In this document: piece by piece, positions 11,453-62,368 of the stretch
Position numbering within the stretch: position 1 is the stretch's first letter
Layout: every line of letters begins with the position of its first letter
Source of the DNA: Chiloscyllium plagiosum
Taxonomy: Eukaryota
DNA: 64,000 nucleotides
NCBI RefSeq assembly: GCF_004010195.1
Contig: NC_057715.1
Span: forward strand, 106,516,824-106,580,823
Reading direction: 5' to 3'
Notes under the pieces: generated by a model
What the model was told of the DNA's origin: nothing
Databases searched by the model: none
The model's input: only the letters and a program-made list of their open reading frames with translations
Made by a program: the position numbers and the translations under genes

Positions 11453-11592
11453 AGAAAGTGAGGTCTGCAGATGCTGGAGATCAGAGCTGAAAATGTGTTC
11501 CTGAAGAAGGGCTTATGCCCGAAACATCGATTCTCCTGTTCCCTGGATGCTGCCTGACCTGCTGCGCTTTTCCAGCAACACATTTTCAGCCG
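11453..11592. mobile_element. 140-bp hammerhead mini-PLE (family A) with inverted arm
   Basis: 15-bp TSD TTATACACTTAATGG at 11438-11452 and 11593-11607; ribozyme core at 11501-11528. Confidence 0.9.
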
Positions 11593-11697
11593 TTATACAC
11601 TTAATGGTAAGGTCCTAGGGAGTGTTGCTGAACAAAGAGATCTTGGAGTGCATGTTCATAGCTCCTTGAAAGTGGAGTCGCAGATAGATAGGATAGT

Positions 11698-12630
11698 TCA
11701 AAGTTTGTGCGAAGATTTGTAGCTCGGGTGCTCATTGCTGTGGTTCTGTTCGCCGAGCTGGAAGTTTTTGTTGCAAAAGTTTCATCCCCTGGCTAGGCGA
11801 CATCATCAGTGCTTGGGAGCCTCCTGTGAAGTGCTTCTTTGATGTTTCCTCCGGTGTTTATAGTGGTCTGTCCCTGCTGCTTCCGGTTGTCAGTTTCAGC
11901 TGTCCGCTGTAGTGGTTGGTATATTGGGTCCAGGTCGATGTGTTTGTTGATGGAGTTTGTGGACGAATGCCATGCCTCTAGGAATTCCCTGGCTGTTCCC
12001 TGTCTGGCTTGCCTGATGATACATACCATACATACCATACCACACTACCATACATCAGGAGCATCTCGGAACTGACAGCCAGACTACTGCGACCCCTAGG
12101 ACTCATAACGGCACACAAACCAACAGCCACGCTCAGACAACAACTCACCAGAACGAAGGCAAAACTAATGTAGTGTTCTAAATACCATGCAAGGACTGCA
12201 CAAAACACTATATAGGACAAACAGGAAGACAACTAACAATCCGCATATATGAACATCAACTAGCCACGAAACGCCACGACCAGCTATCCTTCGTAGCCAC
12301 ACACGCAGACAACAAGCAACATGAATTCGACTGGGACAACACTACTATCATAGGGCAAGCCAGACAGAGAACAGCCAGGGAATTCCTAGAGGCATGGCAT
12401 TCATCCACAAACTCCATCAACAAACACATCGACCTGGACCCAATATACCAACCACTACAGCAGACAGCTGAAACTGATAACCGGAAGCGGCAGGGACAGA
12501 CCACTATAAACACCGGAGGAAACATCAAAGAAGTGCTTCACAGGAGGCTCCCAAGCACTGATGATGTCGCCTAGCCAGGGGACGAAACGTTTGCAACAAA
12601 AACTTCCAGCTCGGCGAACAGAACCACAGC
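11698..12630 (+). mobile_element. PLE family C (Penelope/Poseidon-like), 5'-truncated, with inverted pLTR
   Basis: TLPYIRSISELTARLLRPLG...IPCKDCTKHYIGQTGRQLTIRIYEH...REFLEAWHS (GIY-YIG domain). Inverted copy at 11698-12016. 12-bp TSD AGATAGGATAGT at 11686-11697 and 12631-12642. Confidence 0.92.
12555..12594 (+). ncRNA. Minimal hammerhead ribozyme, PLE family C
   Basis: gca-CTGATGA-T-GTCGCCT(agcc)AGGGGAC-GAAA-CG-TT-tgc; helix I gca/tgc. A mutated inverted copy lies at 11773-11812. Confidence 0.75.
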
Positions 12631-13653
12631 AGATAGGATAGTGAAGAAGACGTTTGGTATGCTTTCCTTTATTGGTCAGAGTATTGAGTACAGGAGTTGG
12701 GAGGTCATGTTGTGGCTGTACAGGACATTGGTTAGGCCACTGTTGGAATATTGCATCCAATTCTGGTCTCCTTCCTATCGGAAAGATGTTGTGAAACTTG
12801 AAAGGGTTCAGCAAAGATTTACAAGGATGTTGCCAGAGTTGGAGGATTTGAGCTATAGGGAGAGATTGAACAGGCTGGGGCCGTTTTCCCAGGAGCGTCA
12901 GAGGCTGAGGGGTGACCTTATAGAGGTGTACAAAATTATGAGGGGCGTGGATAGGGTAAATAGACAAAGTCTTTTCCCTGGGGTCAGGGAGTCCAGAGTT
13001 CGAAGGCATAGGTTTAGGGTGAGAGGGGAAATATATAAAAGAGACTTTGCGGGGCAACCTTTTCATGCAGACAGTGGTACGTGTATGGAATGAGCTGCCA
13101 GAGGAAGTGGTGGAGGCTGGTACAATTGCAATATTTAAGAGGCATTTGGATGGGTATATGAATAGGAAGGGTTTGGAGGGATATGGGCCGGGTGCCGGCA
13201 GGTGGGACTAGATTGGGTTGGGATATCTGGTCGGCATGGACGGGTTGGAACGAAGGGTGTGTTTCCATGCTGTACATCTCTATGACCCTATGACTCTACA
13301 AACAGACTTGAACCTAAGCGCATAGCCTCAGAATTAAGAAGAAAGATGAGGAGGGATTTCTTTAGTTAGAGAGTGGTAAATCTGTGAAACCCATTGCTGC
13401 AGAAGGCTATGGAGGCCAAGTCATTGAATGTATTTAAGACAGAGATAGATAGGTTCTTGATTAGTAAGGGAATCTAGGGTTAAAGGGAGAAGGCAGGAGA
13501 ATGGAGTTGAGAAACATATCCACCTTGATCGAATGTGGAGCAAACTTGATAAGCTGAATGGCCTAATTGCTCTTCTATTTTATGGTCAAAGGGAAATGTA
13601 GAAATTGATGCTTGTGTGAAACTATAGACTAACAACAAATCCCTTACATACCT

Positions 13654-13868
13654 CTGAGAGATTTTGCTGCCTAATTCAACGTATCAATTTCGATACATGA
13701 ACCTCTATAAACTGAGCCACCAGCTTACACTGAACCGGAGAATGAGAAAGGATGTGGGTGATGGAGATTTGGATTTATAGCAACACGTACATTTGAGATT
13801 CATGGACTTCTAATCTGTCAATATTTGTTCATCCACCTGTTTTTGTAATAATGTTAAAGACTCATAAT
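13654..13868. repeat. About 215-bp diverged direct repeat, copy 1
   Basis: Collinear with 14959-15172 from ctgagagattttgctgcctaattcaa to aatgttaaagactcataat. Confidence 0.88.
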
Positions 13869-14718
13869 ACCTTGGTTTCAGAAAAATCAAGTGTGAATAT
13901 TTATTCAAAGGATGTGGTAACTCCAAAACAGAAAATCAGTAATGCAGTACTGGAAACAGCCATAATCAAGATCCTGAGAAACATTTTGCACCTTTATCAG
14001 TTCTCCTGCTCGCTCCAGGCCAATGGACAGGAGTAGAATGATGTCGCCATTGGGATGAATAAATTCCAGGCCACAAAACCAGATTCAGAGTAAAACTTTG
14101 TTCAACCATACACTATCATGTACATTTTCTAAAAAAAATACAACATTATTCCAAAAGATTGCTCAACTGTTAGTTCCATAAGGAATATTTTGTTAAAGTA
14201 TAGGGTAAATGCTGCGGAGTTGATGTCAGTGTTTTTTTGAACAATACACCATTGTCTGCTCAGGATGAATTTTCTTTACAATCTTTTACCATAAATTTAT
14301 GCAATGTTTCTTTAAAATCTAGAATTTGCATAACGTTGAAGTTTCAGTCTTAATGCTTTGGTGAAAACAAACAGGCAAATTATGGGTCCTTGGATAGGAA
14401 TGTGAGTGAATTACTAACCATTCAGAACACAAATGCTGACACTATCATGAGTTTCCTTTTCAAATAACTGTATTCATAAATACATATATATACACGCACA
14501 CATAATGTTATTACATATATACATATCTGATATGATCATTTGTTATTTTTGGTGTTTTTGGAATTAGGGTGAGCAAGAGAAGAACAGCAGAATATGGATG
14601 AACGTTTATTAACCATATAATTGCGTCAAAGGAAAATTATCTTGAACATAAGTGCAAGAATTTTGGAAAGCCCATCAGAGCCAACAGATGTAAAGTAAAT
14701 TTGGTACTGATATTCAGG

Positions 14719-14882
14719 GCTGAAAATATGTTGCTGGAAAAGCGCAGCAAGTCCTGAAGAAGGGCTTATGCCCAAAACGTCGATTCTCCTACTCCTTGGA
14801 TGCTGCCTGACCTGCTGTGCTTTTCCAGCAACACATTTTCAGCTCTGATCTCCAGCATCTGCCAGTCCTCACTTTCTCCTAA
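14719..14882. mobile_element. 164-bp hammerhead mini-PLE (family A) with inverted arm
   Basis: 13-bp TSD ACTGATATTCAGG at 14706-14718 and 14883-14895; core GAAA mutated to AAAA. Confidence 0.9.
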
Positions 14883-14958
14883 ACTGATATTCAGGCACCT
14901 TCTCATTGACACATTGATCAACACTGAATTTCCACATGGGGTACTGGAGTCAATTCCA

Positions 14959-15172
14959 CTGAGAGATTTTGCTGCCTAATTCAATGCATAGATTTCAGTG
15001 CATGAAACATTATTGACTGAGCCACAGCTAATCCTGAGACAGAGAATGAGGGAGGGTGAGGGTGACGTAGATTTGGATGTTTAGCAACAGGCATATTTGA
15101 GATTCATGAATTTCAAATCTGTCAATGTTGGCTCATCCACCTGCTTTTTTAGTAATGTTAAAGACTCATAAT
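14959..15172. repeat. About 215-bp diverged direct repeat, copy 2
   Basis: Collinear with 13654-13868. Confidence 0.88.
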
Positions 15173-15227
15173 TGGCTGCTTGTTGGAGAAGATATTGTGC
15201 TAATCGCCTTGTTCAGAGATTGCTATT

Positions 15228-15310
15228 ACACACTTTTGGGGTAGGTGGGACTTGAACCCTGGTCTTCTGGCCTAGAGGCAGGGACACTACCACTGTACCA
15301 CACTAGCCCT
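15228..15310 (-). mobile_element. Short tRNA-derived SINE
   Basis: A box TGGTACAGTGG and B box GGTTCAAGTCC; related copies near 8820-8905, 10030-10120 and 40665-41200. Confidence 0.6.
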
Positions 15311-17089
15311 GTGTTAGGTGGGAGCAGGGGGGAGTTGGAGGAGGATAAGAAAGATTGAGGTGGTCCTGATTGGAAAAATAATTGTCAAGCCTACATTCCT
15401 TCTACACAATGTTTATGGAAACTCATGAACCTCGTTCAGAAATTATAAATCTCAGCCGCGCATTTTCTTGCCGTTCTGAAAAGAATCAAAGAAAAATTGC
15501 AAAATAAGGTGAAGCAATCTCTCAAGACCAAGCCCTTCTCCTCTGGTTGGGGTCCAGCTGTTGTTATCTTTTATTTGTTGCTCCATAAAAGCAATCACCA
15601 ACTCACTTCATTTCCACCTTTCCACTTGACAGAAATCCTGCAGCATAGGAATAAGAGTGACATTCTCCATCCAGAATGCTGGGACAATGTTGCCTGGATC
15701 TCCAGACAGCCCACGGGAAAGGTCAGACGTTGTTGGTCGGTGTGTGAGTTCGGTGGGGTGGAATATGAGGAAAGATGGGTCAGGAGGTCCAAAGCAAAGC
15801 CCTAGATCCAGCCTCTCAATCATGTACAGATTGCATGGATTGAGGGAATGTTATTTCCCCAACAAAATAACAGCCTACATGCACTGGATAACCATTCATG
15901 TAGGCCCATTCTTTCTCATCTTTGCCTGGAGCTGGAATAACTGCAGCTTAGTTTGGCCACGGTGGTCAGTAACTACTTATGGTTTAGCACCATCAAATTT
16001 AATTGAGTTCACTTCAGCATTGAGGCTTTGCGTTTTGGATCTGTGGCCATCTTTGGATTGCAGTGCTGTTAGCAATTCCTTCATCATCATTACTTTCAGT
16101 GACATTTTTTATTCTTATTCTCCACTTAATCAGTATTGACAGGTACAGAGGAGAAGCATAAGATGATTAAATACATGTCCTGCACCACACACAGGCCATA
16201 TGGTTTCATGCACTGGATAACGCACACGTTTATTCTGTACGTATACTTGATGACGCATATGGCACAAACAGATTAATACATAAATTGGCATGTGGTACAT
16301 TGCCAGAGGAGATGAGGAGAATGGTTTAATACAGGTGATTGTTAAGACCCAGAAACTGCAATGAAAGCAGATTTAATAATTGAAACATTGCCCACACTGC
16401 TCAACTTGGGAAGCCAAATAAGACCATTTTTTGAAGTCAATTTTAAATGTCACCAACTACTTTGTTGGTGAATCTGCGTAATCCCAAGTTTTGCAACCTC
16501 CTGTCCTACAGCCACAACAGAACTCATAGTGTACCTCATGAAATGAGCTTAAACAAATGACAACAGCAACAAAAAATAGGGAGGTATTAGCAATGAGTGA
16601 AAATTAAATTAATATACAAATTCAAAAACATAGATGCTTAGGGGAAGATATATGAACTTGCACATCAGATCAGATTCAATAACCTCAAATTTGATCTCAT
16701 GATCTGTGATGTCATTGACCTTTAACTATGTTGTTGGTTCTGTAAGCTTCCACACTGTTTATAGATAAAGGTATTATTACTCCTGTAGCAGGTTTGTTGC
16801 TGATGGACAATGAGAGAAAATATTGGTCTGATGGACTTTTTCAAATGCTTAATTCACCCTCTGATTATGTTGAGTCTTTACCAACTACCTATCCCCAAGT
16901 TTGGTTCAATCACTGGAGGGAATCTATCCCTCTTCGTTCAGATGGAGCAAAAATATAATCTCTGCACAAAGCACCTTTAGACACTTCAACGGTGCACTGT
17001 ATTACTTTAGGGATGGTGTAACCTCTGCTGTGTACATTAGGCCAATCAACCATTTAGGATAACTTTCATTGATGAAAACTGTGCCATTG

Positions 17090-17930: not shown

Positions 17931-18834
17931 ACAGCAGTACAAACAGCAATATCAACATATTCTCCAGTTCCTTCAATAACGGAATGAAATTAGCCTTCAG
18001 TATCTGGACATCTATGTGGAATTAAGATTAGTGCGCTTCTATAATAGATTAGCACCAGGCTACTTTATAAGTAGTGAAGGTAGGAATTATCTCAAAGTAA
18101 AGTTTTGCAAATAAAAATGCTTACGGAAATCAATTGTAAGTTGAACTTGAGCTGTGAAAAATAGTTCTCTGCAAAGTAACAGCAACATAATAGAATTCTA
18201 AACTGCTGTGTATATTCCCACCTTTAGCATCATATAAGGTCATCAGAATGAATGGAGGTGAACCTTACCCGAATCGTATTCAAGTGCCTGTGTATACTGT
18301 CAGGAGCTGAAATGTGCCACTTGGAAATAGGCAAACATTAAGGTGTGGAATACACTGCCTGGAAGTGTGGTGGAGGCAGGTTCAATTGAGGCATTCAGGA
18401 GGGCAATGGATGATTGTTCGGATATGAATGGTGTGCAGGGACATTGGGAAATGACAGGAGATTGGCACTACATAATAGAGCTGGCACAGGCAGATGGGCT
18501 GTATGACCTCCTTCTGCACTGTAATAATCCTGTGACTCTGTGAAATATCTTGTTTATAGTAAGGTTCAGATTGATTCCAATACGTCAACTGATCAAACGT
18601 TTGTTTTACCACTGGATAAAATGGACAAATGAAGGATGTGTAGATGATAAGGAATTTTTAGAATTGATTTGATTATTTTTTAAATTCCTATCCTGGCCTT
18701 TCTTTGGGATATGATTTTCAGGCTTCAACTCTTTCCTCCATGCAGAAACTTGCGTGGAGAGTGCAGACAATACAACTGATTTTAATTTGCACCATCCTAT
18801 TCAACCTTGCTCTTACTGAACTATAACAGCTCAC

Positions 18835-18922
18835 ATTCTGGATTAGTGGTGCTGGAAGAGCACTGCAGTTCAGGCAGCATCCGAGGAGCTTCGAAATCGG
18901 GCAAAAGCCCTTCATCAGGAAT
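18835..18922 (-). mobile_element. PLE family A-related terminus, ribozyme partly deleted
   Basis: tattcctgatgaagggcttttgcccga...cctcggatgctgcctgaactgc on the minus strand. Confidence 0.75.
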
Positions 18923-19535
18923 AAAGATACAACACCATCAATCTAAAAAATGCATCCTTGTTTTCAAATCCCTCAATCTTTTTTCACTCAGCATTGCTAA
19001 CCTCTTCTTGCCCTACAAACCGATTGGGCTGGGAGATCTTTGCTCTCCCCAAGCCTAGCTTTTTGCGTGGCCCCAATTTCAACCATTCCGTTTCTGAAGG
19101 TTTCCTAGGCCCCAAGAATGGGAAATTCCTTCCTCAGCTTGGCCTCTTGCCCACCTGTCTCTTCTTCTCAAAGACACCCCTTTAATCATATTTCTTTGAT
19201 TAAGCTTTGGTCCCCTTTCCTAATGTCTCCTAATGCAGCCTGGTGTCGAAGGCTGCCTGATAACACTTCCATGAAGGAGTGTTGCAATGTTTTCATGAGA
19301 TTAAAGGAGTTACTGGTTCCTTGTGACAATACAGCTAATTCAGTCATTTTTGCATTCTCCAACAAGCAACACTGGGCAGCTGGGTCTTTCCTCCCTAATC
19401 CAAAGAAAGAAGCATCCTTTTGGATTTGACAATTCAGAATGAATTCAGAATGAATTGGCTAATTTATTTCCGTGTCATGAAGTGGGCAGTGTGATGATAC
19501 TTCAGTTTACACTTGGGTATCCCATGAAATGATTT

Positions 19536-19541
19536 TTTATT
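19536..19541 (-). terminator. Candidate poly(A) signal for P2RY8 (about 1 kb 3' UTR)
   Basis: AATAAA on the minus strand at the end of an AT-rich, largely repeat-free stretch; a second AATAAA at 19463-19468. Confidence 0.3.
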
Positions 19542-20555: not shown

Positions 20556-21596
20556 CTATACTGAATCATTTGTTGAATTCAAAGAGAGATGCATCTCCAA
20601 AGCTTGATGATTTTGTAAGCCCGACCGCATTGAGAACATGCTTTCCCTTCTGCATTCGGTTAGACTTCCTTGGCTTGAGATTATTGCTATCCCCAAGTAT
20701 GTTCTGAGCTTCTTACGAAACTCTTTGGAGGCAAAATAATAAATGAATGGGTCAAGGCAGCTATTTAAGCAGCTCAGGGTGAGCGTGACTTTGTAGGCTG
20801 TGTAAACCCCTCTGTTGAAAAAGATCCGTTTGATTATATGAACCAGAAGGATAAGGTTGTTGGGTGCAAAACACGTTACAAACACCAGCAGCACAATTAA
20901 AGCTAAACCAATAGCTCTCCTCTTTTGTGCACTGACATAACTTGAAGAGGTATTGATCAGCTTGGCAATGATCCGAATGTAACAATACACAGTCACACTA
21001 AATGGAATTAAGAACAGGATCATAAATAAAGTGAAAAGAAAAGCTGCCCAAGCTCCTTTGGAAGGTAGCATGTCCATCTTCAGAATGTCAAAGCACGTGG
21101 TAATATTGAGTTCATGAACGTCATATGTCAAATCCTTCATCTCCAGTGGCAGTAAGACAACCAACATGATTGCCCACATTCCTAGGCAAATTGCAATTGC
21201 ATGCTTCTTTGTCCGCCATCTGACACAGTGCATTGTGAGCACTACTCCTACATAGCGGTCCAAGCTAATACATGTCATCGTTAAGATGGAGCAGTACATG
21301 TTCGCGTAGAATAGCACAGTAACTACATTACACAGTTCAATTCCAAAGATCCAATTGTTACCGTTCCAGTGGTATGCACTCTGAAAAGGCAAGAAGATGG
21401 CCAGTAGAAGATCAGTGAGGGTGAGGTTGATCATGAAGATGATGGAAGGCGTCTTAGGTTGTGCTCGGCAGAGAAGAAACAATGAGAACCCATTCCCAGG
21501 CAGGCTGATGGTTGCAACAATGATGTAAAAGATTGGAAGAGTAGTCTTAATAGTTTGATTTGATAGCATTTCCAGAGTCTCATTATCCACTGCCAT
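20556..21596 (-). CDS. P2RY8: P2Y receptor family member 8 (class A GPCR), single coding exon, 346 aa from the conserved Met
   Basis: Intact 7TM ORF: MAVDNETLEMLSN..., PGNGFSL, PSIIFMINLTLTDLL, LCNVVTVLFYANMYCSILTMTCISLDRY, ITTCFDILKMDMLPS, VFVTCFAPNN, LSCLNSCLDPFIYYFASKEF, RRESMFS. These match human P2RY8 as I recall it (DNATLQML, CFDVLKW, RRESLFS). The ATG at 21596 has a strong Kozak context (ATCATGG); the ORF-track start at 21614 is a TTG. Confidence 0.93.
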   Translation of the reverse strand: MAVDNETLEMLSNQTIKTTLPIFYIIVATISLPGNGFSLFLLCRAQPKTPSIIFMINLTLTDLLLAIFLPFQSAYHWNGNNWIFGIELCNVVTVLFYANMYCSILTMTCISLDRYVGVVLTMHCVRWRTKKHAIAICLGMWAIMLVVLLPLEMKDLTYDVHELNITTCFDILKMDMLPSKGAWAAFLFTLFMILFLIPFSVTVYCYIRIIAKLINTSSSYVSAQKRRAIGLALIVLLVFVTCFAPNNLILLVHIIKRIFFNRGVYTAYKVTLTLSCLNSCLDPFIYYFASKEFRKKLRTYLGIAIISSQGSLTECRRESMFSMRSGLQNHQALEMHLSLNSTNDSV

Positions 21597-21643
21597 GATG
21601 AACTGGCACCTCAAATCGAAACCACTACGAGTGGATGGGTTTT

Positions 21644-21668
21644 CTTAAGAGAAGGAAAGAGCAGAACA
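21644..21668 (-). other. P2RY8: Splice acceptor of the P2RY8 coding exon (exon starts 21643, 47 nt before the ATG)
   Basis: Minus strand reads tgttctgctctttccttctcttaag|AAAACCC. Mammalian P2RY8 also has an intron just 5' of its ATG. Confidence 0.75.
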
Positions 21669-22487: not shown

Positions 22488-22590
22488 AAAGAGTGTGGTG
22501 CTGGAAAAGTACAGCAAGTCAGGCAGTATCCGAGGAGCAGCAGAATCGACATTTCAGACAAAAGCCCTTCATCAGTCCTCACTTTCACCT
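22488..22590 (-). mobile_element. Decayed hammerhead mini-PLE
   Basis: Minus-strand arm starting at ctgatgaagggc, joined to the forward tail remnant gtcctcactttcacct. Confidence 0.75.
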
Positions 22591-22685
22591 AAATGTAGGA
22601 CTGAATGGGATTAGTTTCACATTGGGCAATAGGCAGGAGGATGGTCAGATGTGCTTAAGTCTATATTGGTTGCTAGGAGAAACAG

Positions 22686-23123
22686 AGTCGAGAGTGTGGA
22701 ACTGGAAGGATTAGATTAGATTCCCTATACTGTGACCCAATCAATCTACACTGACCCTCTGAAGAGTAACCCACCCAGACCCATTTCCCTCTGATGAAAG
22801 CACCTAACACTATGGGCAATTTAGCATGGCCAATTCACCTGACTTGCACATCGTTAGACTATGGGAGGAAACCGGAGGCAAACCCAGGCTGACACGGGGA
22901 GAATGTGCAAACTCCACGCAGACAATCACCCGAGGCTGGAATTGAACCTGGGACCCTGGTGCTGTGAGGCAGCAGTGCTAACCACTGAGCCACCATGTCT
23001 GATGAAGGGCTTTTGCTCGAAACTTTGATTCTCCTGTGTCTCGGATGCTGCCTGACCTGCTGTGTCTTTTCAGCACCACACTCTCCACTCTGACCTCCAG
23101 CATCTGCAGTGCTCACTTGCTCC
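22686..23123. mobile_element. Hammerhead mini-PLE interrupted by an HE1-like SINE (22710-22997, minus)
   Basis: 15-bp TSD with one mismatch, TGC(T/G)AGGAGAAACAG, at 22671-22685 and 23124-23138; inverted arm 22686-22707, forward arm 22998-23123. Confidence 0.8.
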
Positions 23124-23489: not shown

Positions 23490-23588
23490 ATAAATAAAGA
23501 AGTTGCTGGAAAAGCTCAGCAGGTCTGGCAGCATCTGCGAAGAGAAATCAGACTTAGCGTTTTGAGTTCGGTGACCCTTCCTCAGGAC
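23490..23588 (-). mobile_element. PLE family D terminus
   Basis: ttgctggaaaagctcagcaggtctggcagcatct...gacccttcctcag; homologous to 47015-47105 and 63795-63862. Confidence 0.7.
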
Positions 23589-24119
23589 TGGGATAGTTAT
23601 TATTCAGATTGGATGATGATCGACAACAATGTTCCCCAATTGTCAATGCTAAGGACCACTGTTTTTATCAAGATATGACTCGTAAATTGGAATAAAGAGT
23701 ATAATGTCAAAACATACCAAAAATAGCAAACTTGGTGTTGTGATAGATAGCAATCAACTGCAATAGGAGTTACAGGGAGTGAGCAGATTTGGCAGACGAA
23801 TGATGGGCAAATGGAAATTAAGACAGAGCAGTACGAGGTGTTGTATTTTTAATGAAGATTTAGGAAGAGCTGATACAGGCTTAATGATGTAAGGTACACC
23901 TGGACAGCAGTTTTTGAGGGTTGATGTGCACAGATCTATTAAGATCTTGAATCATGTTGAGGCGTTAAAGCAAATGGGATCTAGGACTTTTTTTTAAAAA
24001 GGCACTGAGTACAGAAGTTATGCTGAACAGGTGATGGAGTGGATGCTGCCCTTTATGGTGGAGTTTGAAACTATTGTGAAAACTGCACTGAGATGAGGAG
24101 AAATATTTTCCTCTCGGCG

Positions 24120-26857: not shown

Positions 26858-26999
26858 AAAGTGAGGTCTGCAGATGCTGGAGATCAGAGCTGGAAACCTG
26901 AAGAAGGATTCCTGAAGAAGGGCTTATGCCCGAAACGTCGATTCTCCTGTTCCCTGGATGCTGCCTGACCTGCTGCGCTTTTCCAGCAACACATTTCCA
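26858..26999. mobile_element. 142-bp hammerhead mini-PLE (family A) with inverted arm
   Basis: 16-bp TSD GATCCTCTTAGAAGGG at 26842-26857 and 27000-27015. Confidence 0.92.
26908..26943 (+). ncRNA. Minimal hammerhead ribozyme, PLE family A (intact core)
   Basis: attc-CTGAAGA-A-GGGC(ttat)GCCC-GAAA-CG-TC-gatt. Confidence 0.8.
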
Positions 27000-28809: not shown

Positions 28810-29531
28810 TTGAAACTTTATTGCTGGAACAGCACAGCAGGTCAGGCAGCATCCAGGAAACTTCCATATCCGCCACAGATTCACCTGCACCTCCACCCAC
28901 ATCATCTACTGCATCCGCTGCAGCCGGTGTGGCCTCCTCTATATTGGGGAGACAGGCCGCCTACTTGCGGAGCGATTCAGAGAGCACCTCTGGGCCACCC
29001 GGACGAACCAACCCAACCACCCTGTAGCACAGCATTTCAACTCCCCCTCCCACTCCACCGAGGATATGCAGGTCATTGGACTCATCCACCGCCAAACCAC
29101 AACAACGCGACGGTCGGAGGAGGAGCGTCTTATCTTCCGACTGGGAACCCTCCAACCACAGGGGATGAACTTGGACTTCACCAGTTTCTTCATCCCCCCT
29201 CCCCCCACCTTGTCTCAGCCGAATCCCTCCAGCCCAGCACCGCCCTCCTGACCTGCAGTCTTCTTCTTGACCTCTCCGCCTCCATCCTACTCCGACCTAT
29301 CACCCTCACCTTGACCTCTTTCCACCTATCACATTTCCAACGCCCCTCCTCCAAGTCCCTCCTCCCTACCTTTTATCTTCTCCTGCTGAACACTCTCTGC
29401 TCATTCCTGAAGAAGGGCCTGTGCCCGAAACGTCGAATCTCCTATTCCCTGGATGCTGCCTGACCTGCTGTGCTGTTCCAGCAATAAAGTTTCAACTTTG
29501 ATCTCCAGCATCTGCAGACCTCACTTTCTCC
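28810..29531 (+). mobile_element. PLE family A (Neptune-like), 5'-truncated, with an open GIY-YIG frame at 28862-29251
   Basis: FTCTSTHIIYCIRCSRCGLLYIGETGRLLAERFREH...RLIFRLGTLQPQGMNLDF; inverted arm 28810-28857; 15-bp TSD TACTTAACCTCTTAG at 28795-28809 and 29532-29546. Confidence 0.93.
29403..29438 (+). ncRNA. Minimal hammerhead ribozyme, PLE family A (intact, perfect helix I)
   Basis: attc-CTGAAGA-A-GGGC(ctgt)GCCC-GAAA-CG-TC-gaat; predicted cleavage after the GUC ending at 29434. Confidence 0.85.
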
Positions 29532-43329: not shown

Positions 43330-43486
43330 GAAAATGTGTTGCTGGAAAAGTGCAGCAGGTCAGGCAGCATCCAAGGAACAGGAGAATCGACGTTTCGGAC
43401 ATAAGCCCTTCTTCAGGACCTGCTGCGCTTTTCCAGCAACACATTTTCAGCTCTGATCTCCAGCAACTGCAGTCCTCACTTTCTCC
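43330..43486. mobile_element. 157-bp hammerhead mini-PLE (family A) with inverted arm, inside an old antisense CR1 relic
   Basis: 14-bp TSD TTATGATCACTGTT at 43316-43329 and 43487-43500. Confidence 0.92.
43385..43418 (-). ncRNA. Minimal hammerhead ribozyme, family A
   Basis: tc-CTGAAGA-A-GGGC(ttat)GTCC-GAAA-CG-TC-gatt on the minus strand. Confidence 0.75.
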
Positions 43487-46410: not shown

Positions 46411-47879
46411 GCTCAAGTCCAGTAGCAATTGATTTCAGTCTCTCTGGGGCTTTAGGGCAGAATGGCAACATTTTCTGCAGATTCCACGCAACTCTGTTAG
46501 ATGTGTTCCCTTTTGAGATGTAGGATAGGCAGATAATTTGTCATCACCCAATCTTTTAGAATTTAACGGAGCACTTCAGCTGAGGCAAACAAAAGCCGAG
46601 AGCACATGAATTGCGCCACCCTCATCAGAGCAGGTGTGGTCTTTCCCAGGCCCGCTCTGACCCCAGGAAACTGAGGATTGGGGTCCATTATACACAAGGA
46701 CTGACTGCAATAATCAGAATATTCTGCAAGCCCTAACATAGCAGTGAACTAAGAGCCTTGGCTTTAAATTGTTCCCAGTCTCTCATCAGTCCAACTACTT
46801 GCTGGAGTGGAATGTCATTACAATGATTTTTTTTGAGAATTAAGAAACAAAGTTTGCTAAGGGTGAAGCAATTGGAAGACACCAAAGCTGGAATTGCCTC
46901 ATTAAATCTGTAATTGCACATTTTCATGAGTCTTCTCTTATAGATAAAAAAAATTACAAAGAGCAGACTGGTGTTGTAAGAAATCTTTGTATTTTCCTTT
47001 TGTACATTATTCCAAAAACAGGAATCGCTGGAAAAGCTCAGCAGGTCTGGCAGCATCTTTGGAAAGAAAGTGAAGTTAATCTTTTGAGTCCAATGATCCT
47101 TACACATTATTACTTAGAAAGTGACTGAGATGTTACACAACACTATGAGCTTATGATAAAGTTTCGGAGATAGGTTGAAGAAATGAAGAGTGAAGATATT
47201 TTTCATTTTAACTCCCTCAGAACCTTAATGGGAATTAAAAGTGGACCCAAAGCATATGCAAGAGTTGATATTTATTGATTGATTTAGTTGATGTCAGCTA
47301 CTGTCACTGATATTATGTAAATCCTTTGAACTTCATGCTCTTCATAAGCTTCAGAAAATTTAAAAGAGGCTTCTTTTAACCAAACAGCAGGAAGAAATCA
47401 TTACCACAGAGTATGGTTGAAGCAAATAATATGGATAAATAAACAAGAGTGCTTACCAATTCAGGAGGGCAAAAGGAATTGAGGATTATGTTGATAGATT
47501 TAGACGAGGAAAGATGCAAGAGAGTTGGAAAGGAGCGTAAACATCAGCATGGACTAGTGGGCCAAGTGGCCTGTTTATCTGCTGTAATAACCTAATCTAG
47601 ATTCTTTGTTCAACACCTTAAAGAAGGCATGGAAATTGAAGAGGAAGGCACTTGATACAATCTCTTCAAATGTTCTGTTGATAATATTAACATCAAGTAT
47701 TTGGAAACTTGCTTGGTGAGAACAACAGTTAAATATAAAGGGTGAGACATAACATTGGACTGGTAGATCAGTGACATTGAAAATTGGATAATTCCTGAAA
47801 CAGGTGCTTGGTTTACCTGGTGGTGAGGGTGTGAATCAGACCTTATTTGCAAAGGGAGTACTACTTGTTGCACTCATCA

Positions 47880-50800
47880 GTGTCTGAATGCTCATAACAC
47901 TCAAAGCAAAATTGATGAACTCACAGCACAAATAGAAATGAATTAGTATGATCTAGCATCTGTTATGGAGACATGGTCTAGGATGGTATGGTTGGGACTG
48001 GAGTTTTGAAGGGTACAGAAAGTATGTGAAGTAGAAACGGTGGTTGCATTAGTTAGTAATGATATCAGTACAATTGATCTGAACAGGCTGAGGTTACCAT
48101 GATAATTTCACCTTCTCAATCTCACCCTGTACCTGAGGTATGGTGTACCTTAGGTTAAGATTACCATGAGATGTCTCTCTCTCTCTCTTTCTCTAATTAG
48201 AAATTAGCTCCATGGTCCTCTGGGACTATGGCAAATTTACCTTTTTTTTGTCATAATAGAGAGGAATAACCTAGCATAAGAAAACTAAGATTTGAAGGTA
48301 GTTTGGGCAGAAATGAAAAATGACAAAAGCAAAAAGTCACTTGTGGGAGTGGAGTAAGTGCCTCTAACAGTAACCACACAAGAGGGTGGAGTAAAAAGGA
48401 AGAAGTCATGAGAAGTTGTCAGACAGGCAGATTGATAATCAGAGATTTTAATCTGCGATTTACATCAATTGAATAAATCAGAAATGCAAAAGTAGCCTGA
48501 GTAATGTGTTCATAGAGTGTTTCATGAGATAGTTTCTTAGAACAGAATTTTCAGGAGCTGACCAGAGAGCAGGTATTACTAGATATGGTATTTTGATGAG
48601 ATAGGATTAATTAATAATCACATTGTGAAGACACCACTAGGTAACAGTGTCTATAGTATAATTAAATTTAACATTCAGTTTGAGGGACAGAGGAGTGGGG
48701 ACTGAGACTACTTTATAAAACTTAAATAAGGGCATGACAGTCTGAAAGCAAAGATGACTCAAGTGAATTGTCAAATTAGGTTAATGTTTAGGTCAATAGC
48801 GATGCTATGGCAACCATTGAAGGGATATTTCAGAATACAAAGAATAGATACATTCCAACAAGTAAGAAATGTTGAAGATTGTAAAATAATTTAAAAACAC
48901 ATGGCAAGTGGCATGTTAGAAGATTGGAGAGAATATGAAAAAAAGCAAAGAATGGCCAAAAATTTAATAAGGCGGATATAATTAGAGAGATATTTGATAA
49001 AGTGCCACATCTAAAATTATTGCACAAAATAAACATTCATGGTGTAGGAGGGATCATATTAGCAAGGACATAAGAGTAGTAGGCAAACAGGAAGCAGAGA
49101 GTAGGGATAAATCAGGTGGAAAGTTGTAACCAGAGGTGTGCCAAAAGGATCAGTGCTGGGTCCTCAACTATTTAAAATTTATATAAGCAACTTGGATGAA
49201 ATGGCAGAAGGTATGGTTGTCAGGTTTGCTGATGACATGCAGATAGGCAAGAAAGTAAGTTGTGAAAACATAAAGAGGTTCCAAAAAAAAGGTATAGATC
49301 GATTAAGTGAATGGATAAAGCTCTGGAAAATGGGATACATTGTGGAAAAAAGTAAAATTGTCCATTTTGGCAGGAAGAATAAAAAAACATACAATTTAAA
49401 TGGCAAGAGATTGCAGTGATCAGATGCTAGAGGTTCTGGGTGTTCTCAAATATGGATCAATTGCAGACACAGCAAGTCATTAGGAATCCAAAGTTATCAT
49501 TTGGTGTGAGAGGAATTAAATATAAAAGTTGGGATGTTATGCTTCAGTTACACAGAGTACTGATAAGACCACATCGAGAGTACTGAGCACTGTATTGGTC
49601 TCCTTATTAAAAGAGGGATGTAAATTCATTAACGTGGTACAGGTTTACCAGACTAACACCTGGAATTAGTGGGTTGTCTTATATACCAGGTTACCATAGA
49701 ATCTCTACAGGCCATTCCTCCACACCCAGACCCATCCCACTAGACTATAACCTTGTATTTCCTATGGCTTATTCACCTCGCCTGCACATTGCAGGCAATT
49801 TTTAGCATGGCCAATCCATCTAACCTATTGTATCCGTTGCTCCTGATGCGGTCTCCTCTACATTGGGGAGACAGGATGCCTCCTAGCAGAGCGCTTTAGG
49901 GAACATCTCTGGGACACCCACACCAATCAACCCCACCGCCCTGTGTCCCAACATTTCAACTCTCCCTCCCACTCTGCCGAGGACATGGGGGTCCTGGGCC
50001 TCCTTCACCGCCGCTCCCTCAACACCAGTTGCCTGGAGGAAGAATGCCTCATCTTCTGCCTCGGAACACTTCAACCCCAGGGTATCAATGTGGACTTCAA
50101 CCGTTTTCAACCCTAGGGCATCAATGTGGACTTCAACAGTTTCCTCATTTCCCCTTCCTCTACCTCACCCCAGTTCCAAACTTCCAGCTCAGCACTGTTC
50201 CCATGACCTTTCTCCCCACCCCCCTCTCATTTATCTCTCCACCCTTCAGGCACTCTGCCTGTATTCCTGATGAAGGGCTTTTGCCCGAAACATCGATTTA
50301 ACTGCTCCCCGGATGCTGCCTGAACTGCTTTGCTTTTCCAGCACCACTGGTTTCCAGCATCTGCAGTCATTGTTTTTACCTAATCCATCTAACCTGTACA
50401 TCTTTAAACTGTGGGAGGAAACACATACAGACATGAGAAGAACATGCAAACAGCACACAGATAGTTGCCCAAGGCTAAAATTGAACCCAGGTCCCTGGTA
50501 CTGTGAGGCAGCAGTGATAACCACTGAGCCACAGTACCATCTAAGCTGGACAGGCTAAGCTTATATCTCCTGTTCTTTCAAAGATTAGGGGAGGACTTGA
50601 TTTAAACTTATAAAATTCTGTCGGGTCATGACAGAATAGGTGTGGTGAGGATATTTGTTCTTATTGGAGAATCTTGAATTAGGGGTCACTGTTTGCTAAC
50701 CAGGTGCCATCCATTTTAAACAGAAATTAGGAAAATTATCTTTTTTTTCAAAGGTTTTTAAATCTGAAAATTTGGAGGGAGCAGAGTGCTTGAATATTTT

Positions 50801-51218: not shown

Positions 51219-51343
51219 GGAGAAAGTGAGGTCTGCAGATGCAGGAGATCAAGCTGAAAATGTGTTGCTGGTAAAGCACAGCAGGTCAGGCAGCATCCAA
51301 GGAACAGGAGAATCGACGTTTCGGGCATAAGCCCTTCATCAGG
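51219..51343 (-). mobile_element. 125-bp solo hammerhead mini-PLE (family A), no inversion
   Basis: 11-bp TSD AATTGAAGATA at 51208-51218 and 51344-51354; the element begins at cCTGATGA. Confidence 0.92.
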
Positions 51344-51460: not shown

Positions 51461-51500
51461 CAGGATGTGGACTATAACCTGGTATTGTGTGATTTTTAGC
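51461..51500 (+). mobile_element. 40-bp family B terminal insertion
   Basis: ggactataacctggtattgtgtgattttt flanked by the 12-bp TSD TACATTAGAAGC (51449-51460 and 51501-51512). Confidence 0.8.
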
Positions 51501-52455: not shown

Positions 52456-52700
52456 CACAGAGTGTGGTGTGGTGCTGGAAAAGCACAGCCAGTCAGGCAG
52501 TGTCCGAGGAGCAAGAGAGTCAATGTTTTAAGCATAAGCTCTTCATCAGGAATGACTCTTCTCCTCATCATATTGATAAAAGGCTTATCCTTGAAACTTC
52601 GATTGTCCTGCTCCTCGGATGCTGCCTGACCGGCTGTGCATTTCCAGTGCCACACTTTTTGACTCTGATCTCCAGCACTTGCAGTCCTCATTATCTCGTA
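52456..52700. mobile_element. Older palindromic mini-PLE with two decayed hammerheads back to back
   Basis: Inverted arm about 52456-52553, forward arm about 52570-52700. Confidence 0.8.
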
Positions 52701-56345: not shown

Positions 56346-57668
56346 AAGAAAAACCTTCAAAAATGGAGAGGCTGAGTAAGATGCATCCAGGTGTTTGGAC
56401 GAAAGAGTTCACATGAAGAGTGATACGTGGTCCTTACCCAGTAAAGTAGGCCTTGGTTGTGGACTGGTCTTGAGAAGGTGAGCATGGAAAGGCTGTTTGC
56501 TCTAATGGCTGACTCCAGAACTGGAGGGAACCGTTTAAAATGACAAAGATGGTGGGAAATATTTCATCACTGACAGTTATGAGACTATGCCTCAGAAGGC
56601 AGTGGAGTCATGGTTATTGAGTATGTTTTAAGACAAAGTTGATAGATTCTTGTTAGACAGTAGAATCCGAGGTTATCGCGGATGGATGGTAATGTGGAAT
56701 TCAGAGGACAAACAGATCAGCCATGATCGTATTGAATGGTGGAACAGATTTGATGGGCAGAATCACCTACTTCTGCTCATAATTCATATGGCAAACAGTG
56801 AGTGAGAAATCAGGGATCAGGAGCTTGGAGAAGAATTGGAGCAATCAGTTATTGGAGGAATAGGTTCTGAGAGAGGATCTACGCAAGAAAGATCACATAG
56901 TTCTTCAGAGAATGAGAAACGGCAATTATGTTTAGTGCAGACAAGCTGGAAGAACTCAGCAAGCCAAGCAGCATCAGGAAGGTGGAGCAGGAGACAGGGG
57001 TCAGAGTGGGTACAGCACATATAAGGAAGGGGGGGGGGGGTTTAAGCAAGTTAGGGTTTACTCCATGACTTGTTAGTTGGGAGAGGAAGCTTCCGTGAGC
57101 CAGGAGGTGGGTCTTTGAGAAATCACCATCTCTAAACCTCATTCTGGCCTGGGATGTTAGCCGCTTCACTCTAAGGAATCTGGAGATGAATCAGATGATT
57201 ACTTACTGAGCGAGAAAAGGAGATACAATGCACCACAGGGATCATAAGAGAGATAAGGAAACAGATAAATCAAACTTTTCAAATCCCAATGAAGGAATAA
57301 CAAATGAGCTGAATGACAGGAAGGAAGTATGATAAAAAGAGTCAAATCAGGTGTGTAAAAGAAATAAGAGAAGGGAAAAGAGATTAGATTGGGAGAAATG
57401 ACAAAAAAGGATGAAACCAGGTATTCTGACTTCCTTTGGGTATGATTTGCAGGTAAAGAATCTCTCTCTCTCTCTGAGTGCCAGCTAACTAGCAGCTAGA
57501 CAAAGGGAAGTAGGATAGCAAAAGGCTTGTCTCTCATCCTGAATGCTCGAAATCAATCAGAATAGAAAGGAATCAGAACTACAACATCTCAAAAAAGCTG
57601 TAGAATGAAGTGGCATAAAATTGACTGTTCAACTACCAACATCAATGCTAACGAGGACCTTTACTGCA

Positions 57669-57758
57669 CACAGCCACCTGATGAAGGAGCGGCGCTCTGA
57701 AAGCTAGTGTTTCCAATGAAACCTGTTGGACTATAACTTGGTGTTGTGTGATTTTTAA
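57669..57758 (+). mobile_element. 90-bp solo hammerhead mini-PLE (family B)
   Basis: 10-bp TSD CTTTACTGCA at 57659-57668 and 57759-57768. Confidence 0.85.
57675..57709 (+). ncRNA. Minimal hammerhead ribozyme, family B
   Basis: cac-CTGATGA-A-GGAGC(ggc)GCTCT-GAAA-GC-TA-gtg; helix I cac/gtg. Confidence 0.8.
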
Positions 57759-58679
57759 CTTTACTGCAAAGGATGCAATGTTTGCTCTTGTGAACTATTC
57801 AGAAACTGATCTGTATAATTCATTGATCAAGATTGTTTATACTTTTGGATTTAATTTTTAATTCTAATCTGCTTATATGTTTGTTGTATTAGTGTTTAGT
57901 AATTAACAAACTCAGTTAACTTAAGAAAGCTTGGTTAAATTGGCTCTGTTTAAAATGCAAGTTAATTTAGGTGTGGAAGAAAGGTACCCACAAAGGAAGG
58001 GATTGATTGCTAAGTCAGCCTTGTTGCCATCTTCCAAGGCTGGGGGCGCATAATGAAGGGGACCAGGTAAATCACTCCTCACTGAGAACTTTACATGTTG
58101 GAGGAAAGCAACCAATACTTCAGCATTAGCCAGCTCTGAACCACTGTGGCAGAGCGGGATAGTGGGGTAGAACTTGTGTGCTTTGCTCAAGGTGGTTCTT
58201 CCTCTTCAAACACATCAAAACAGACAAAGATGGTAACAGGTAGACAGGAGATCAAAACTGAAACTCCTGGTTTTGTACTGTTGAGGCAGCCAGTTTAATG
58301 CCTTTCCTTTGCCTGCCTGTCCCCAGTTCAACCAACATATTCTGACATTAGACAGCTGTCTCCACCAGATCAAGAGGTCAAAACACAGAGCACAGTCTCA
58401 CTCAATCACTGGATCCTACCTGGCACTTATACACATTTCCTGGAAGAAAGATGGCAGTCTGATTTCCCCCAACACCAGCGTTGGGCTCATAAATCTAGAG
58501 CAGGAGAGGTCATTCAGTGTTAGGGTCTACCTGTCTATGAGCATGAAGGAGTGGAGAAAAGGTTCAGTCTTCACATGTGCCATGAATAATCCCACCTCCA
58601 ACTCTCAAACCAGACAAACTGTGAAGGACGTGTAGGTAAGGTCTGGCCCTGACTCATACATTGACAAGGCATATAAGGG

Positions 58680-59263
58680 GAGACAGGCCGCCTACTTGCG
58701 GAGCGTTTCAGAGAACACCTCTGGGACACCCGGACCAACCAACCCAACCACCCTGTAGCCCAACATTTCAATTCCCCCTCCCACTCCACCAAGGATATGC
58801 AGGTCTTTGGAATCCTCCATCGTCAGACCACAACAAAACAACGGTTGGAGGAAGAACGCCTCATCCTCCGGCTAGGAACCCTCCAACCACAAGGGATGAA
58901 CTCGGGTTTCACCAGTTTCCTCATTTCCCCTCCCCCCACCTTGTCTCAGTCAAATCCATCGAATTCAGCACCGCCTTCCTAACCTGCAATCTTCTTCCCG
59001 ACCTCTCCGCCCCCACCCCCGTCTGACCTATCACCCTCACCTTGACCTCTTTCCACCTATCACATTTCCGACGCCCCTCCCCCAAGTCCCTCCTCCCTAC
59101 CTTTTATCTTAGCCTGCTGGACAAACTTTCCCCATTCCTGAAGAAGGGCTTATGCCCGAAACGTCGATTCTCCTGTTCCCTGGATGCTGCCTGACCTGCT
59201 GCGCTTTTCCAGCAACATATTTCCAGCTCTGATCTCCAGCATCTGCAGACCTCACTTTCTTCT
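58680..59263 (+). mobile_element. PLE family A, 5'-truncated in GIY-YIG
   Basis: ETGRLLAERFREHLWDTRTNQPNHPVAQHFNSPSH...RLGTLQPQGMN; 15-bp TSD CAAGGCATATAAGGG at 58665-58679 and 59264-59278. Confidence 0.93.
59134..59169 (+). ncRNA. Minimal hammerhead ribozyme, family A (intact core)
   Basis: attc-CTGAAGA-A-GGGC(ttat)GCCC-GAAA-CG-TC-gatt, downstream of a GIY-YIG ORF fragment. Confidence 0.82.
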
Positions 59264-62179
59264 CAAGGCATATAAGGGCCAAGTGCTGGAAAATAGGATT
59301 CAAATAGCTACATGCTTGATTCTGACTGGCACAGACATGACGGACTGAAGGGCCTTTATCTGTGCGGTAGACCTCAATGATCGTGGGACCTTAATGAAAA
59401 ATGATGGAAAGATGCAAATGATCATGCAACCACAACTTCTCCCTCCACTTAATGCAATGAGAGTCTCTATTATTCTCCCAGCAGGCTTTGATGCCTCATT
59501 TCTTTTTATTGGTATTGTTTCAAAAATAGTATGTGTTGACTGGGATAAAAAGATTTCACCTTCCTCTCACTCCCATGGCCTGACATCCATCAAAATCTAG
59601 ACAGAGACCTTTTGCTACAACAATCAACAGGCTATGAGACCACGGTTACACATATCTGGCCCTGCCACCCACTGCTTTGCTTTGTGGGACCAATTTTCAT
59701 CCAGATCCCTACACCCAGTGGGCCTGGCAGCAATCAGCAGCAAAGGTGGTCACACAGGGCTGTACCTTGTGATTGTCAGAGACATTACGGGGAGCCAGGA
59801 ACATCTGCTGGTGTGGCCTGAAACAAACTAAACCCAAACAGGCGCAGAACTACCTGAACTCGCCCACACACGAGGACCACAACATTGACACATCCCCCAC
59901 CACCGCAGCCAAAACAAAGGATAGTGGCAATTGCAAACTGCTATCTCATTGATGCAAGAAGCAAAACCTCAGAACACCAGCTGGTGGTACATTCAAGTGC
60001 TCGCAGAATCGGCTGTTACCTAGGGTCCACCTCAGCTCCTCAGGGCTAGGATAGAGAGATGACAGTGCCAGCTGGTTTTGCTGGTACCTGGTGATCTCTC
60101 ACACCCAACCACCCGCAGCCCCCTCCCATCCCACCCACAGCCCCACATGTGAATGGAAGCAGAAATGGGAAACCCTGGAGAATTGATCAGTGTCCCATGG
60201 GGAGGTACTGCGGTTGGGGAATAGCTAGCATTTCCACACAGAGGAAGCTTTTGAACAAATGGCAGGCACCAGGAATCATAGTGAAGGAACAAAGCGAGAA
60301 ACCAGAAACAAAACATAGCAAAAGTCATTTTTATTGAAATGGGAACAGAAGATTTCATCTAAAATTATTAAAGTAAAGGTGGCTCCAGGAAACTGTAGAA
60401 CACTGAGTCGAATGATGACATGCCATTTCTTTAGCTTGCATTGAGCTACATTGGGACACTGCCACAGGATAAGGACAGAGAGGTCCGTATGGGAGCATGG
60501 TGGAGATTTCTAATGACTGGTACCTGGATACATGCTTACACTACTGTATTCACTATTTACACAATGGTCCTTTCTATGTTCGTGAGAAGGCATGCAAGAC
60601 TGGTTGACTGCTTTGTAGAACACTCTTCATAGTGCTGCCAGCTATTTTCTTTTGATAACTAATTTAGGTAATGCGAGAGATTAATATATGCACTAGGCCC
60701 CACAACCAACAATTGGGATAATGACCAGGCTTTCTGGTTTTCTTTAGTGATATTGGTTGAGGATTTAAATTGGTCTATAAACAGTGGAGACCTCCTGCAC
60801 TCATTTTAAAATTATGTCATGGGACTTTCTGTGTCCACCTGAGAGGGAAGTCAGAATATTAAAGCAAAAGATGGCATCTCCGACGGATGGCATACTCTTG
60901 GTGTCACACTGGAGAATCAGTATGGAATATGAACTCAAGTCACTGGAGCCTAGATTTAGCTCATCATGTTCTGACTCATTTATCTCCTTCAACAGCATCT
61001 TCTGACCTGCAATCTCTCCCATCTAAAAGGACAAGGATAGAAGATGCATTCGAACACCACTGCTTGCAAATTCCCTTGGAGCCACTCACCATCCTGACTT
61101 GGAATTATATCACTGTTAATTCACTTTCACAAGGTCAGAATCCTGAAAGCACCCTCCACTCCCCTCCCCACCCCACCGCCCCCAACCCATACCCCAACAA
61201 CACTACACTGCCACTGCATTCGCAAGGATTGCAGTAATTTGAGAAGACACCTCATCATTGTCTTCTCAAGGGCAACCAGGAATGGGGAATAGATGCTGGG
61301 CCCAGCTAGCAATGCCCACATCCTACGTGCTCACCGCCCTTGGCAAGCTTTCAGACGCACGAAACTAGAGAAGACGCACATGTTAAGTCAAAATGTGAGA
61401 CTTGTCACAATGTGTGCACAACCGCTATCTCGCCATGAAATTGTGGCTGCGGATTGCATCGTGGTGACTTCCTTTTCTTTCAGCTGTGGGCAGGGTAAGC
61501 ACGCAAGCTTCTATCAGAACAGGATTTTACTAGTGAAAGACAAAGGAAAGTCAGGGTGTGACAGCCCGTCAGAGTGTGCTGCAAAGGCTACTGACCAAAA
61601 ACCTGCTCTTGAAAGAATCAACGCATCGCATCAGGAGCAGAGGATATCTTAGTATCAAAACTAGGCACATTCAATTAGCACCCTGCTCACAGCTCAGACA
61701 CTAATACATGACATAAATTAAAACCCTATTAAACAGAAATTAATATCTTGAGACAAAAAAAAGTTATTACCAGTTTGGTGTTTTACAGCTAAAATAAGGT
61801 TAAACTGTTTTCACTTATCCACCAATAGGGACTGTCCTACACTAGAGCTTTCCACGTGGTTACTATGCAATAAATGTTTATACAACTCACGCACCAAGAA
61901 ATATAAGAAAAAAGCAGGTTGTGATTAAAAGCAGTGAGCCAAGTCTGCTACATATAGTGAAAGCCTTTCGCCCATGTGTGTGCAATGTGCAACATATTTG
62001 ACTAGATTCCACCCTTTCCCCTGATACGTTACATTATCAAGTGCAGATCTAAACAGGAACTCCTGCTGTTATTTCAATCAAGAATTCCAATAACAGAAAA
62101 TAAAGTAAAAGCAATCACACAAAGCAGAAATATCGCTCAAAGAGGTACATATGAGATGGTCTGCTTTTCTACCACCCAG

Positions 62180-62368
62180 GTCAGAAGTCACACAACACGA
62201 GGTTATCGTCCAACAGGTTTATTTGAAATCATATTTGAAGGAGTTTCACCTGATGAAGGAGCAGAGGTCTGAAAGCTTATGATTTCAAATAAACCTGTTG
62301 GACTATAACCTGGTGTCGTGTGACCTCTGACTTTGTTGACCCCAGTCCAACACCAGCATGTCCACATC
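62180..62368. mobile_element. Family B mini-PLE with inverted arm
   Basis: Inverted arm 62180-62232, decayed hammerhead 62250-62278, forward arm extends about 37 nt further. Confidence 0.8.

Follow-up and report, generated by a model that had tools for sequence, protein, structure and literature searches.

A 64,000-nucleotide stretch of the shark Chiloscyllium plagiosum (assembly GCF_004010195.1, contig NC_057715.1, positions 106,516,824 to 106,580,823; hereafter the window) carries a series of short non-coding inserts, here called stubs, in which a hammerhead ribozyme motif is flanked by target-site duplications (TSDs). An earlier note on this DNA had read them as a discrete family of non-autonomous retroelements akin to retrozymes or short interspersed elements (SINEs), and the locus raises the question of whether such a family exists or whether the stubs are products of the Penelope-like elements (PLEs) whose ends they resemble. 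The stubs are real, abundant, and discrete, and consist of a pseudo-long terminal repeat (pLTR) with a minimal hammerhead, with or without a 35-nt tail; the label of a new retrozyme family does not hold, and they look like by-products of known PLE biology. We consider it probable that they represent the 5′-terminal 95–130 nt of two endonuclease-containing (EN+) PLE families, left as run-off by-products of the parent's own insertion and dead on arrival.

All seven inserts reported earlier were recovered at the positions given below, with exact TSDs of 10–16 bp (11 bp for the insert at 22686). Negative positions (e.g., −135) are counted backward from the 3′ end of the family A reference copy; the wall denotes the 5′-end pile-up of terminus arms, and the tail the 35-nt stretch between tailless and tailed 3′ ends.

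11453..11592: family A head-to-head pair, inverted tailed arm (−68..−7) plus forward tailless arm from the wall (−134..−42); 15-bp TSD, 11438-11452/11593-11607; hammerhead core at 11501
14719..14882: family A pair in which the inverted arm is short and tailless and the forward arm, starting at the wall (−133), has a tail; 13-bp TSD, 14706-14718/14883-14895
22686..23123 (438 bp): older family A pair whose arms flank a ~290-nt tRNA-headed SINE on the minus strand; one TSD encloses all, 11 bp exact or 15 bp with one mismatch, 22671-22685/23124-23138
26858..26999: family A pair made up of a short inverted arm with tail, an ~11-nt stretch repeating the 5′ end, and a forward arm from −135 without tail; 16-bp TSD, 26842-26857/27000-27015; core at 26912
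43330..43486: family A pair in which the inverted arm begins at the wall (−133) and has no tail, whereas the forward arm (−76..−6) has one; 14-bp TSD, 43316-43329/43487-43500; core at 43416, minus strand
51219..51343, minus strand: solo family A stub that starts at the wall and spans the entire pLTR and the tail; 11-bp TSD, 51208-51218/51344-51354; core at 51342, minus strand
57669..57758, plus strand: solo family B stub, tailless, from family B's own wall; 10-bp TSD, 57659-57668/57759-57768; core at 57678

The earlier description of each insert as a hammerhead plus element terminus and nothing more fits the two solo stubs (51219 and 57669); the other five of the seven are head-to-head pairs of termini. 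The proposed size of 90–250 bp fails for 22686..23123, with its internal SINE, and the single family proposed holds for the family A inserts but not for 57669 or a decayed copy at 62180, which represent a second PLE family (family B) whose hammerhead and tail are different. Chance TSDs of at least 9 bp occurred in 2/300 random spans. A minimal-hammerhead descriptor identified 9 sites in the window, as compared with a mean of 0.01 (maximum 1) in 100 shuffles, which supports the claim that the inserts carry PLE minimal hammerheads. An Rfam scan returned no hammerhead family at E ≤ 1, and it is therefore the minimal descriptor that identifies the ribozyme.

The parent of the family A stubs is represented in the window by three longer copies:

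28810..29531, plus strand: 5′-truncated family A copy with part of GIY-YIG, 3′ untranslated region (UTR), pLTR, and tail; 15-bp TSD
58680..59263, plus strand: 5′-truncated family A copy, tailed, without an inverted arm; pLTR and tail at 59134-59263; 15-bp TSD
49827..50380, plus strand: 5′-truncated family A copy of an older subfamily, absent from the earlier note; TSD of 14–16 bp with one mismatch

Family A stubs are 92–98% identical to 59134-59263, which bears out the reported near-identity with the ends of GIY-YIG-coding elements. The copy at 28810..29531 carries a short inverted tailless arm at its left end, a layout like that of the stubs with only the other arm longer. The single family A open reading frame (ORF) codes for a reverse transcriptase (RT), a CxxC linker, and, at the C terminus, a GIY-YIG domain, the linker before GIY-YIG reading C-x4-C-x2-C. 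PF01541 was found in the coding copy at 28814-29248 and just under the cut-off in locus L177; the RT motif YIDD is present in L180, an RT fragment for which neither Pfam nor PDB returned a match. Among the best 120 of 165 protein homologues, most carry PF00078 and many PF01541, and the closest named homologue among the matches listed is from Chiloscyllium punctatum (79% over half of the query). The Neptune clade is defined by a Zn-finger-like CxxC linker between RT and EN (PMC8557442), and by this linker family A is classed as a putative Neptune-type EN+ PLE.

The same terminus, a pLTR with a minimal type I hammerhead, occurs both 3′ of the family A ORF and 5′ of its start. In L208 and L225 the pLTR-plus-tail is continuous with the start of the body, and the ORF-opening ATG lies ~35 nt past the tail; an upstream DNA walk reached the N-terminus through truncated or gapped copies. 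Public sequencing runs carrying the labels of three organisms also contain a terminus-plus-body stretch of family A, which makes its presence in related species probable. For family B, a GIY-YIG region lies upstream of the terminus in L304 (tblastn E 1e-14) with a long 3′ UTR between them. This family has the hammerhead, tail, 29 inverted pairs, and two 3′ ends of an EN+ PLE; its RT and 5′ body were not seen, and five rows compared past its tail gave no common continuation. The earlier suggestion that a PLE protein mobilised the inserts is retained, as insertion by that protein is judged necessary.

A census of 1,264,000 bases (1,224,928 non-N) on 13 contigs of the 3.56-Gb assembly, at places picked blind to the element except for the window itself, was searched with one natural family A copy as query. 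This returned 264 terminal matches in 205 loci, of which nine matching only −92..−50 were dropped from density and end counts, leaving 196 (72 of them young; arms below 86% or 88% identity are excluded from young counts). The dropped matches, at −86..−55, derive from a motif of ~32 nt that a fourth family, seen in the window at 23492-23590 and 47014-47101 with a hammerhead-like core, has in common with the family A terminus. Density is ~160 family A loci per Mb, which extrapolates to roughly half a million genome-wide if the census is typical; family B contributed 71 loci.

The ends of these copies are the main evidence for a discrete class. The 3′ ends of 106 young family A arms lie at two positions separated by 35 nt (56 tailed, 48 tailless, 2 other). 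At the 5′ side, 54 of the 73 young arms that reach −129 stop at −138..−129, and the other 19 pass seamlessly; the two arms of one pair are not independent in these counts. The background stop rate per 10 nt is 4.6% downstream and 6.2% upstream of the wall, so the claim of a discrete, abundant class as opposed to random truncations stands. A 5′-end peak had been sought at the ribozyme. The peak is sharp, but it marks the element's own 5′ end: the wall lies ~30 nt upstream of the predicted hammerhead cut site (−104/−103), and 5′ ends within 3 nt of that site number 3/106, as against 45/106 within 3 nt of −134. The class is thus discrete without its ends being set by the ribozyme. A BLAST artefact was rejected as the source of the wall: in 27 of the 33 young pairs one arm or both end at the wall, where the partner arm and the TSD delimit them, and alignments of long copies from several subfamilies run through it.

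The 59 two-armed family A loci are head-to-head without exception, and in 58 of them exactly one arm is tailed; in family B this one-tail rule holds for 27 of 29 pairs. Every young family A pair (33/33) has a TSD of 9–18 bp, mostly 13–16 bp with a mode of 14, and the TSDs are 65% AT. Junctions between arms vary by locus, with short overlaps or up to 19 inserted bases. At subfamily-defining cells the arms of one locus differ at 1/237, as compared with 1702/4503 between loci (62% agreement). Locus-private variants appear in both arms 3 times and in one arm only 47 times; such rare sharing suggests that the templates were close to the masters. An assembly artefact as the origin of the palindromes was ruled out by the TSDs and the one-tail asymmetry, and opposite-strand joints of the same type also occur in contigs of two other public runs.

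Loci linked to the family A body bear on what the wall is. Sixty such loci were compiled as best matches to the body start, a biased set in which two rows overlap one locus pair. An adjoining 5′ terminus is present in 52 of the 60, with 22 starting at −137..−129, 5 reaching further, and 25 shorter; the modal start is −135 (8 copies). From 65–592 nt of body, 37 of the 60 pass into a second terminus, and 23 restart at −139..−132. Among 27 such junction rows, 7 are seamless, 6 uninformative, and 7 explained by the body; in the 7 left, the base before the wall is G in 5, as a cap might leave, and the native C in 2. The wall base A(−135) lies within what we take to be an initiator-like motif. TTTATC is found at −28..−33 relative to the wall in 17 copies, among subfamilies with differing spacers, and family B has TATAAA 32 nt before its own wall. 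The stubs themselves lack this upstream TATA-like box, which lies in the preceding 3′ UTR. From these features we infer that transcription starts at A(−135), within the initiator-like motif and ~31 nt downstream of a TATA-like box.

Some body-linked loci form miniature pLTR-tail-body-pLTR units with two same-strand hammerheads at a spacing of ~200–700 nt, as would be expected of a retrozyme seed (L233, L243, L254, L264-L266, L269, L272-L274, L276, L278, L279, and L283-L286). In L233 and L243 one body-to-pLTR junction is common to both despite differing pLTR loops.

A simple model of two-strand priming and run-off would account for the stub ends. The PLE protein would nick both target strands ~14 bp apart and prime cDNA on each, one at each of two internal start sites and probably on one RNA; because these sites would lie only 95 and 130 nt from the cap, the RT would run off there. 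The cDNA ends may then be joined to one another, often by microhomology, or to the target; alternatively, the RT may jump back into the body or to another RNA. Longer copies would arise by priming at the downstream pLTR of a tandem (or circular) transcript, and the hammerhead would be carried along uncut. Parts of this scheme have precedent: the PLE protein of the anole nicks and extends both strands, two internal RT start sites bound its tail, and its RNA needs ~172 nt of ORF downstream of the start sites with hammerhead cleavage dispensable (PMC11167929); the Penelope promoter and transcription start lie inside the pLTR (PMC2377424), and circular PLE RNA has been proposed (PMC4209133). A stronger, retrovirus-like version is conceivable, and we raise it tentatively as distinctly the less expected outcome. 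In such a strong-stop scheme a dimeric protein would nick both strands, prime two sites of one capped RNA, run off the cap, and then have to jump, with the stubs as a genome-wide fossil record. Stubs and palindromes would be failed jumps, the pLTR-body-pLTR minis (possible retrozyme seeds) short jumps, and full-length two-pLTR copies jumps to the RNA 3′ end or a hammerhead-closed circle. If true, PLEs would regenerate their terminal repeats in a retrovirus-like way.

Several observations weigh against run-off from a cap at the wall. The upstream DNA walk met no intact full-length family A copy in one piece. The family B wall is broader, with 34/102 census arms within 15 nt. Among the five G junctions, two are identical and could stem from a single event, and a broader tally of the base before the wall gave no G excess (25/100), in a class that also included native flanks from older subfamilies. 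Similar fractions of 5′ arms (22/27) and census arms stop at the wall, as a model of RT stalling also predicts, and the family A TATA-like box is a weak match. As to one RNA or two per pair, a single active subfamily at a time would equally give matching arms. In an RNA run of 2,534 raw reads, from a poly(A) single-cell library under a related label and therefore a poor test, no pile of starts or ends was seen; 92% of these reads run on into unlike sequence, which fits passive read-through. No RNA run was among the public runs listed as carrying the family A stretch.

An independent retrozyme- or SINE-like family with an internal promoter, recopied by the PLE protein, is what the earlier note had favored. 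Its appeal lies in the discrete size class, which is far commoner than ORF-bearing copies (87 of 106 young arms begin at the wall or inside it, and the 1.26-Mb census contains no match to the first 400 nt of the family A body), and in published precedents: pLTRs can contain internal promoters (PMC2377424) and suffice for mobilisation in trans (PMC3846280), and vertebrates have retrozymes derived from PLEs (10.64898/2026.07.22.740005). The junction common to two loci also favors it, as do 3 of the 37 variants present in at least 3 of 65 short loci, which are confined to short copies (3 loci each); the other 34 recur among 127 ORF- or body-linked termini. The subfamily-specific substitutions in short copies to which the note had looked were checked in the census, and none was common: a column test of short against long arms (83 vs. 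20, 130 columns) gave nothing significant after correction (smallest p 0.012), and no diagnostic substitutions of a SINE-like lineage emerged from the 1.26-Mb sample. The ribozyme core changes at a rate like that of the sequence downstream (13/662 vs. 72/3388, p = 0.88), indicating neutral decay after insertion. Pair junctions vary by locus, and arms seldom share private changes; the TATA-like box upstream is missing from the stubs (though they may have a promoter element downstream), the anole PLE requires ORF sequence past the tail (PMC11167929), and the mapped jumps in body-linked loci landed in the body, in a set selected for body. The stubs look like by-products rather than a lineage, and we regard the independent family as improbable. 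Much the same evidence bears on whether the stubs are cDNA of hammerhead-cut monomers or small circles, as in non-LTR retrozymes. Their minimal hammerheads are intact, and the minis do provide paired same-strand hammerheads, but the ends avoid the cut site, and single minimal hammerheads showed no in vitro cleavage (PMC4209133); in the 1.26-Mb census, 92 intact cores included 5 pairs on the same strand within 1 kb of each other but never three in succession. Neither tandem head-to-tail units, each with a hammerhead, nor unit ends set by cleavage were found. This origin is very hard to credit.

On a longer transcript, the wall could alternatively be a site where RT stalls at the 5′ edge of a hammerhead that is folded or bound by protein, or an ATT favored for cutting or joining, which would make the stubs ordinary 5′ truncations with one hot spot. 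It falls on the 5′ strand of stem I, the endonuclease of the anole PLE has a preference for ATT near the junction of its own ORF and pLTR (PMC11167929), some arms cross the wall seamlessly, and the stop fraction is alike in 5′ and census arms. Neither stalling nor ATT preference accounts for an initiator-like motif and a box ~31–32 nt upstream in two unrelated families, or for the extra G at 5/7 informative junctions; single-strand folding of the terminus gave no unusual stability (z −1.4 to +0.7), and the RT would already have crossed the stronger stem II unstopped. We therefore think this explanation unlikely, though slightly less so than an independent family. Recombination between the two pLTRs of longer copies, as in the formation of solo LTRs, would yield TSD-flanked solos starting at −135, and short pLTR-body-pLTR precursors exist; yet such precursors are rare (no body-start match in 1.26 Mb), copies >95% identical are already stubs, and head-to-head pairs, trimmed arms, and the one-tail rule are left unexplained. 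It has very little to recommend it as compared with two-strand priming and run-off.

Inverted pLTRs, tails, and dispersed minimal hammerheads are already published. EN+ PLEs of the Neptune clade have been described with 5′-truncated insertions, an inverted pLTR, and a 30–40-bp tail, and self-priming on an antisense template was suggested for PLE palindromes (PMC8557442, PMC3846280). Family A resembles these elements in its RT, CxxC linker, and C-terminal GIY-YIG, in the hammerhead and initiator-like motif of its pLTR, and in head-to-head copies with a tail on one end only and a TSD. It differs from the published accounts, which are qualitative, in that the pLTR-only form is the majority, the 5′ wall is sharp, and one-tail pairing is near-obligate. 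With Poseidon of Anolis carolinensis in vitro (PMC11167929) it shares two adjacent internal RT start sites that define the tail, nicking and extension of both strands, AT-rich targets, and a dispensable hammerhead cleavage; Poseidon belongs to another clade, and its ORF starts inside the hammerhead (stem II), whereas that of family A starts past the tail. Pairing of both start sites in one insertion is seen in the shark stubs and is not reported for Poseidon in the accessible parts of that study.

The shark hammerheads resemble the minimal hammerheads of metazoan PLEs (PMC4209133) in an extra base after A9, G10.1-C11.1, a palindromic 15.2-16.2, and the lack of helix III. Dispersed hammerheads in that survey were mostly single, with some close opposite-strand pairs, and were interpreted as truncated PLEs; its accessible text contains neither "Shark" nor "Callorhinchus", nor the end mapping found here for the stubs. 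Non-LTR retrozymes are tandem ~150–450 bp units, each with a hammerhead, expressed as circular RNAs (PMC7229834; 10.64898/2026.07.22.740005); they are held to derive from PLE pLTRs and are reported in the one chondrichthyan sampled (10.64898/2026.07.22.740005). The stubs are like them in being non-coding, type I, related to PLE pLTRs, flanked by large TSDs, and present as dispersed monomers (PMC7229834; 10.64898/2026.07.22.740005), and unlike them in that they are shorter, stand alone or in inverted pairs, carry minimal hammerheads, and have ends that bear no relation to the cut site. No literature on such stubs in sharks, the wall, or the one-tail rule was found in a search to which subscription journals, Dfam, and Repbase were external. 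The value of the stubs lies in end statistics that bear on how PLEs make pseudo-LTRs, tails, and head-to-head repeats and that make the insertion mechanism testable. Counts of hammerheads and "monomeric retrozymes" in fish genomes may also consist mostly of dead PLE stubs.

The window holds further copies of both families. The decayed relatives noted earlier at 22488, 52456, and 62180 are present, the last belonging to family B; TSDs were looked for at these three and none was found.

1700..1833, plus strand: family B copy that retains upstream 3′ UTR with a TATAAA box; left end not mapped
18832..18926, minus strand: decayed solo family A stub from −135, absent from the earlier note
22488..22592: inverted family A arm that starts at the wall, with a small piece of tail; decayed
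52456..52700: two family A arms head-to-head, decayed to ~78% identity
62180..62368: two family B arms head-to-head, the inverted one tailless and the forward one tailed; decayed

The SINE inside 22686..23123 (22708-22997), which we presume to be V-SINE/HE1, is multicopy in the window; A and B boxes were seen by eye, and no TSD of its own was found on the same inspection. Its RNA was likely captured by the PLE RT through a template switch. A second capture, in census stretch C6 ~34 kb upstream of the window (joined position 165970-166506), places 204 nt of non-element sequence between a tailed inverted arm and a forward arm within one 16-bp TSD.

A third PLE family lies at 11736-12631, with an inverted arm, a GIY-YIG-like fragment at 12182-12574 (no Pfam match), and a different hammerhead-like motif near 12555. 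An intact 362-aa rhodopsin-family G protein-coupled receptor frame is present at 20556-21644 on the minus strand (PF00001, E 3e-49), with stubs around it. Within 59134-59263, a 26-codon frame opens with an ATG in hammerhead loop II, much like the stem II start of the anole ORF, and ends in a stop close to the tailless 3′ end in most subfamilies.

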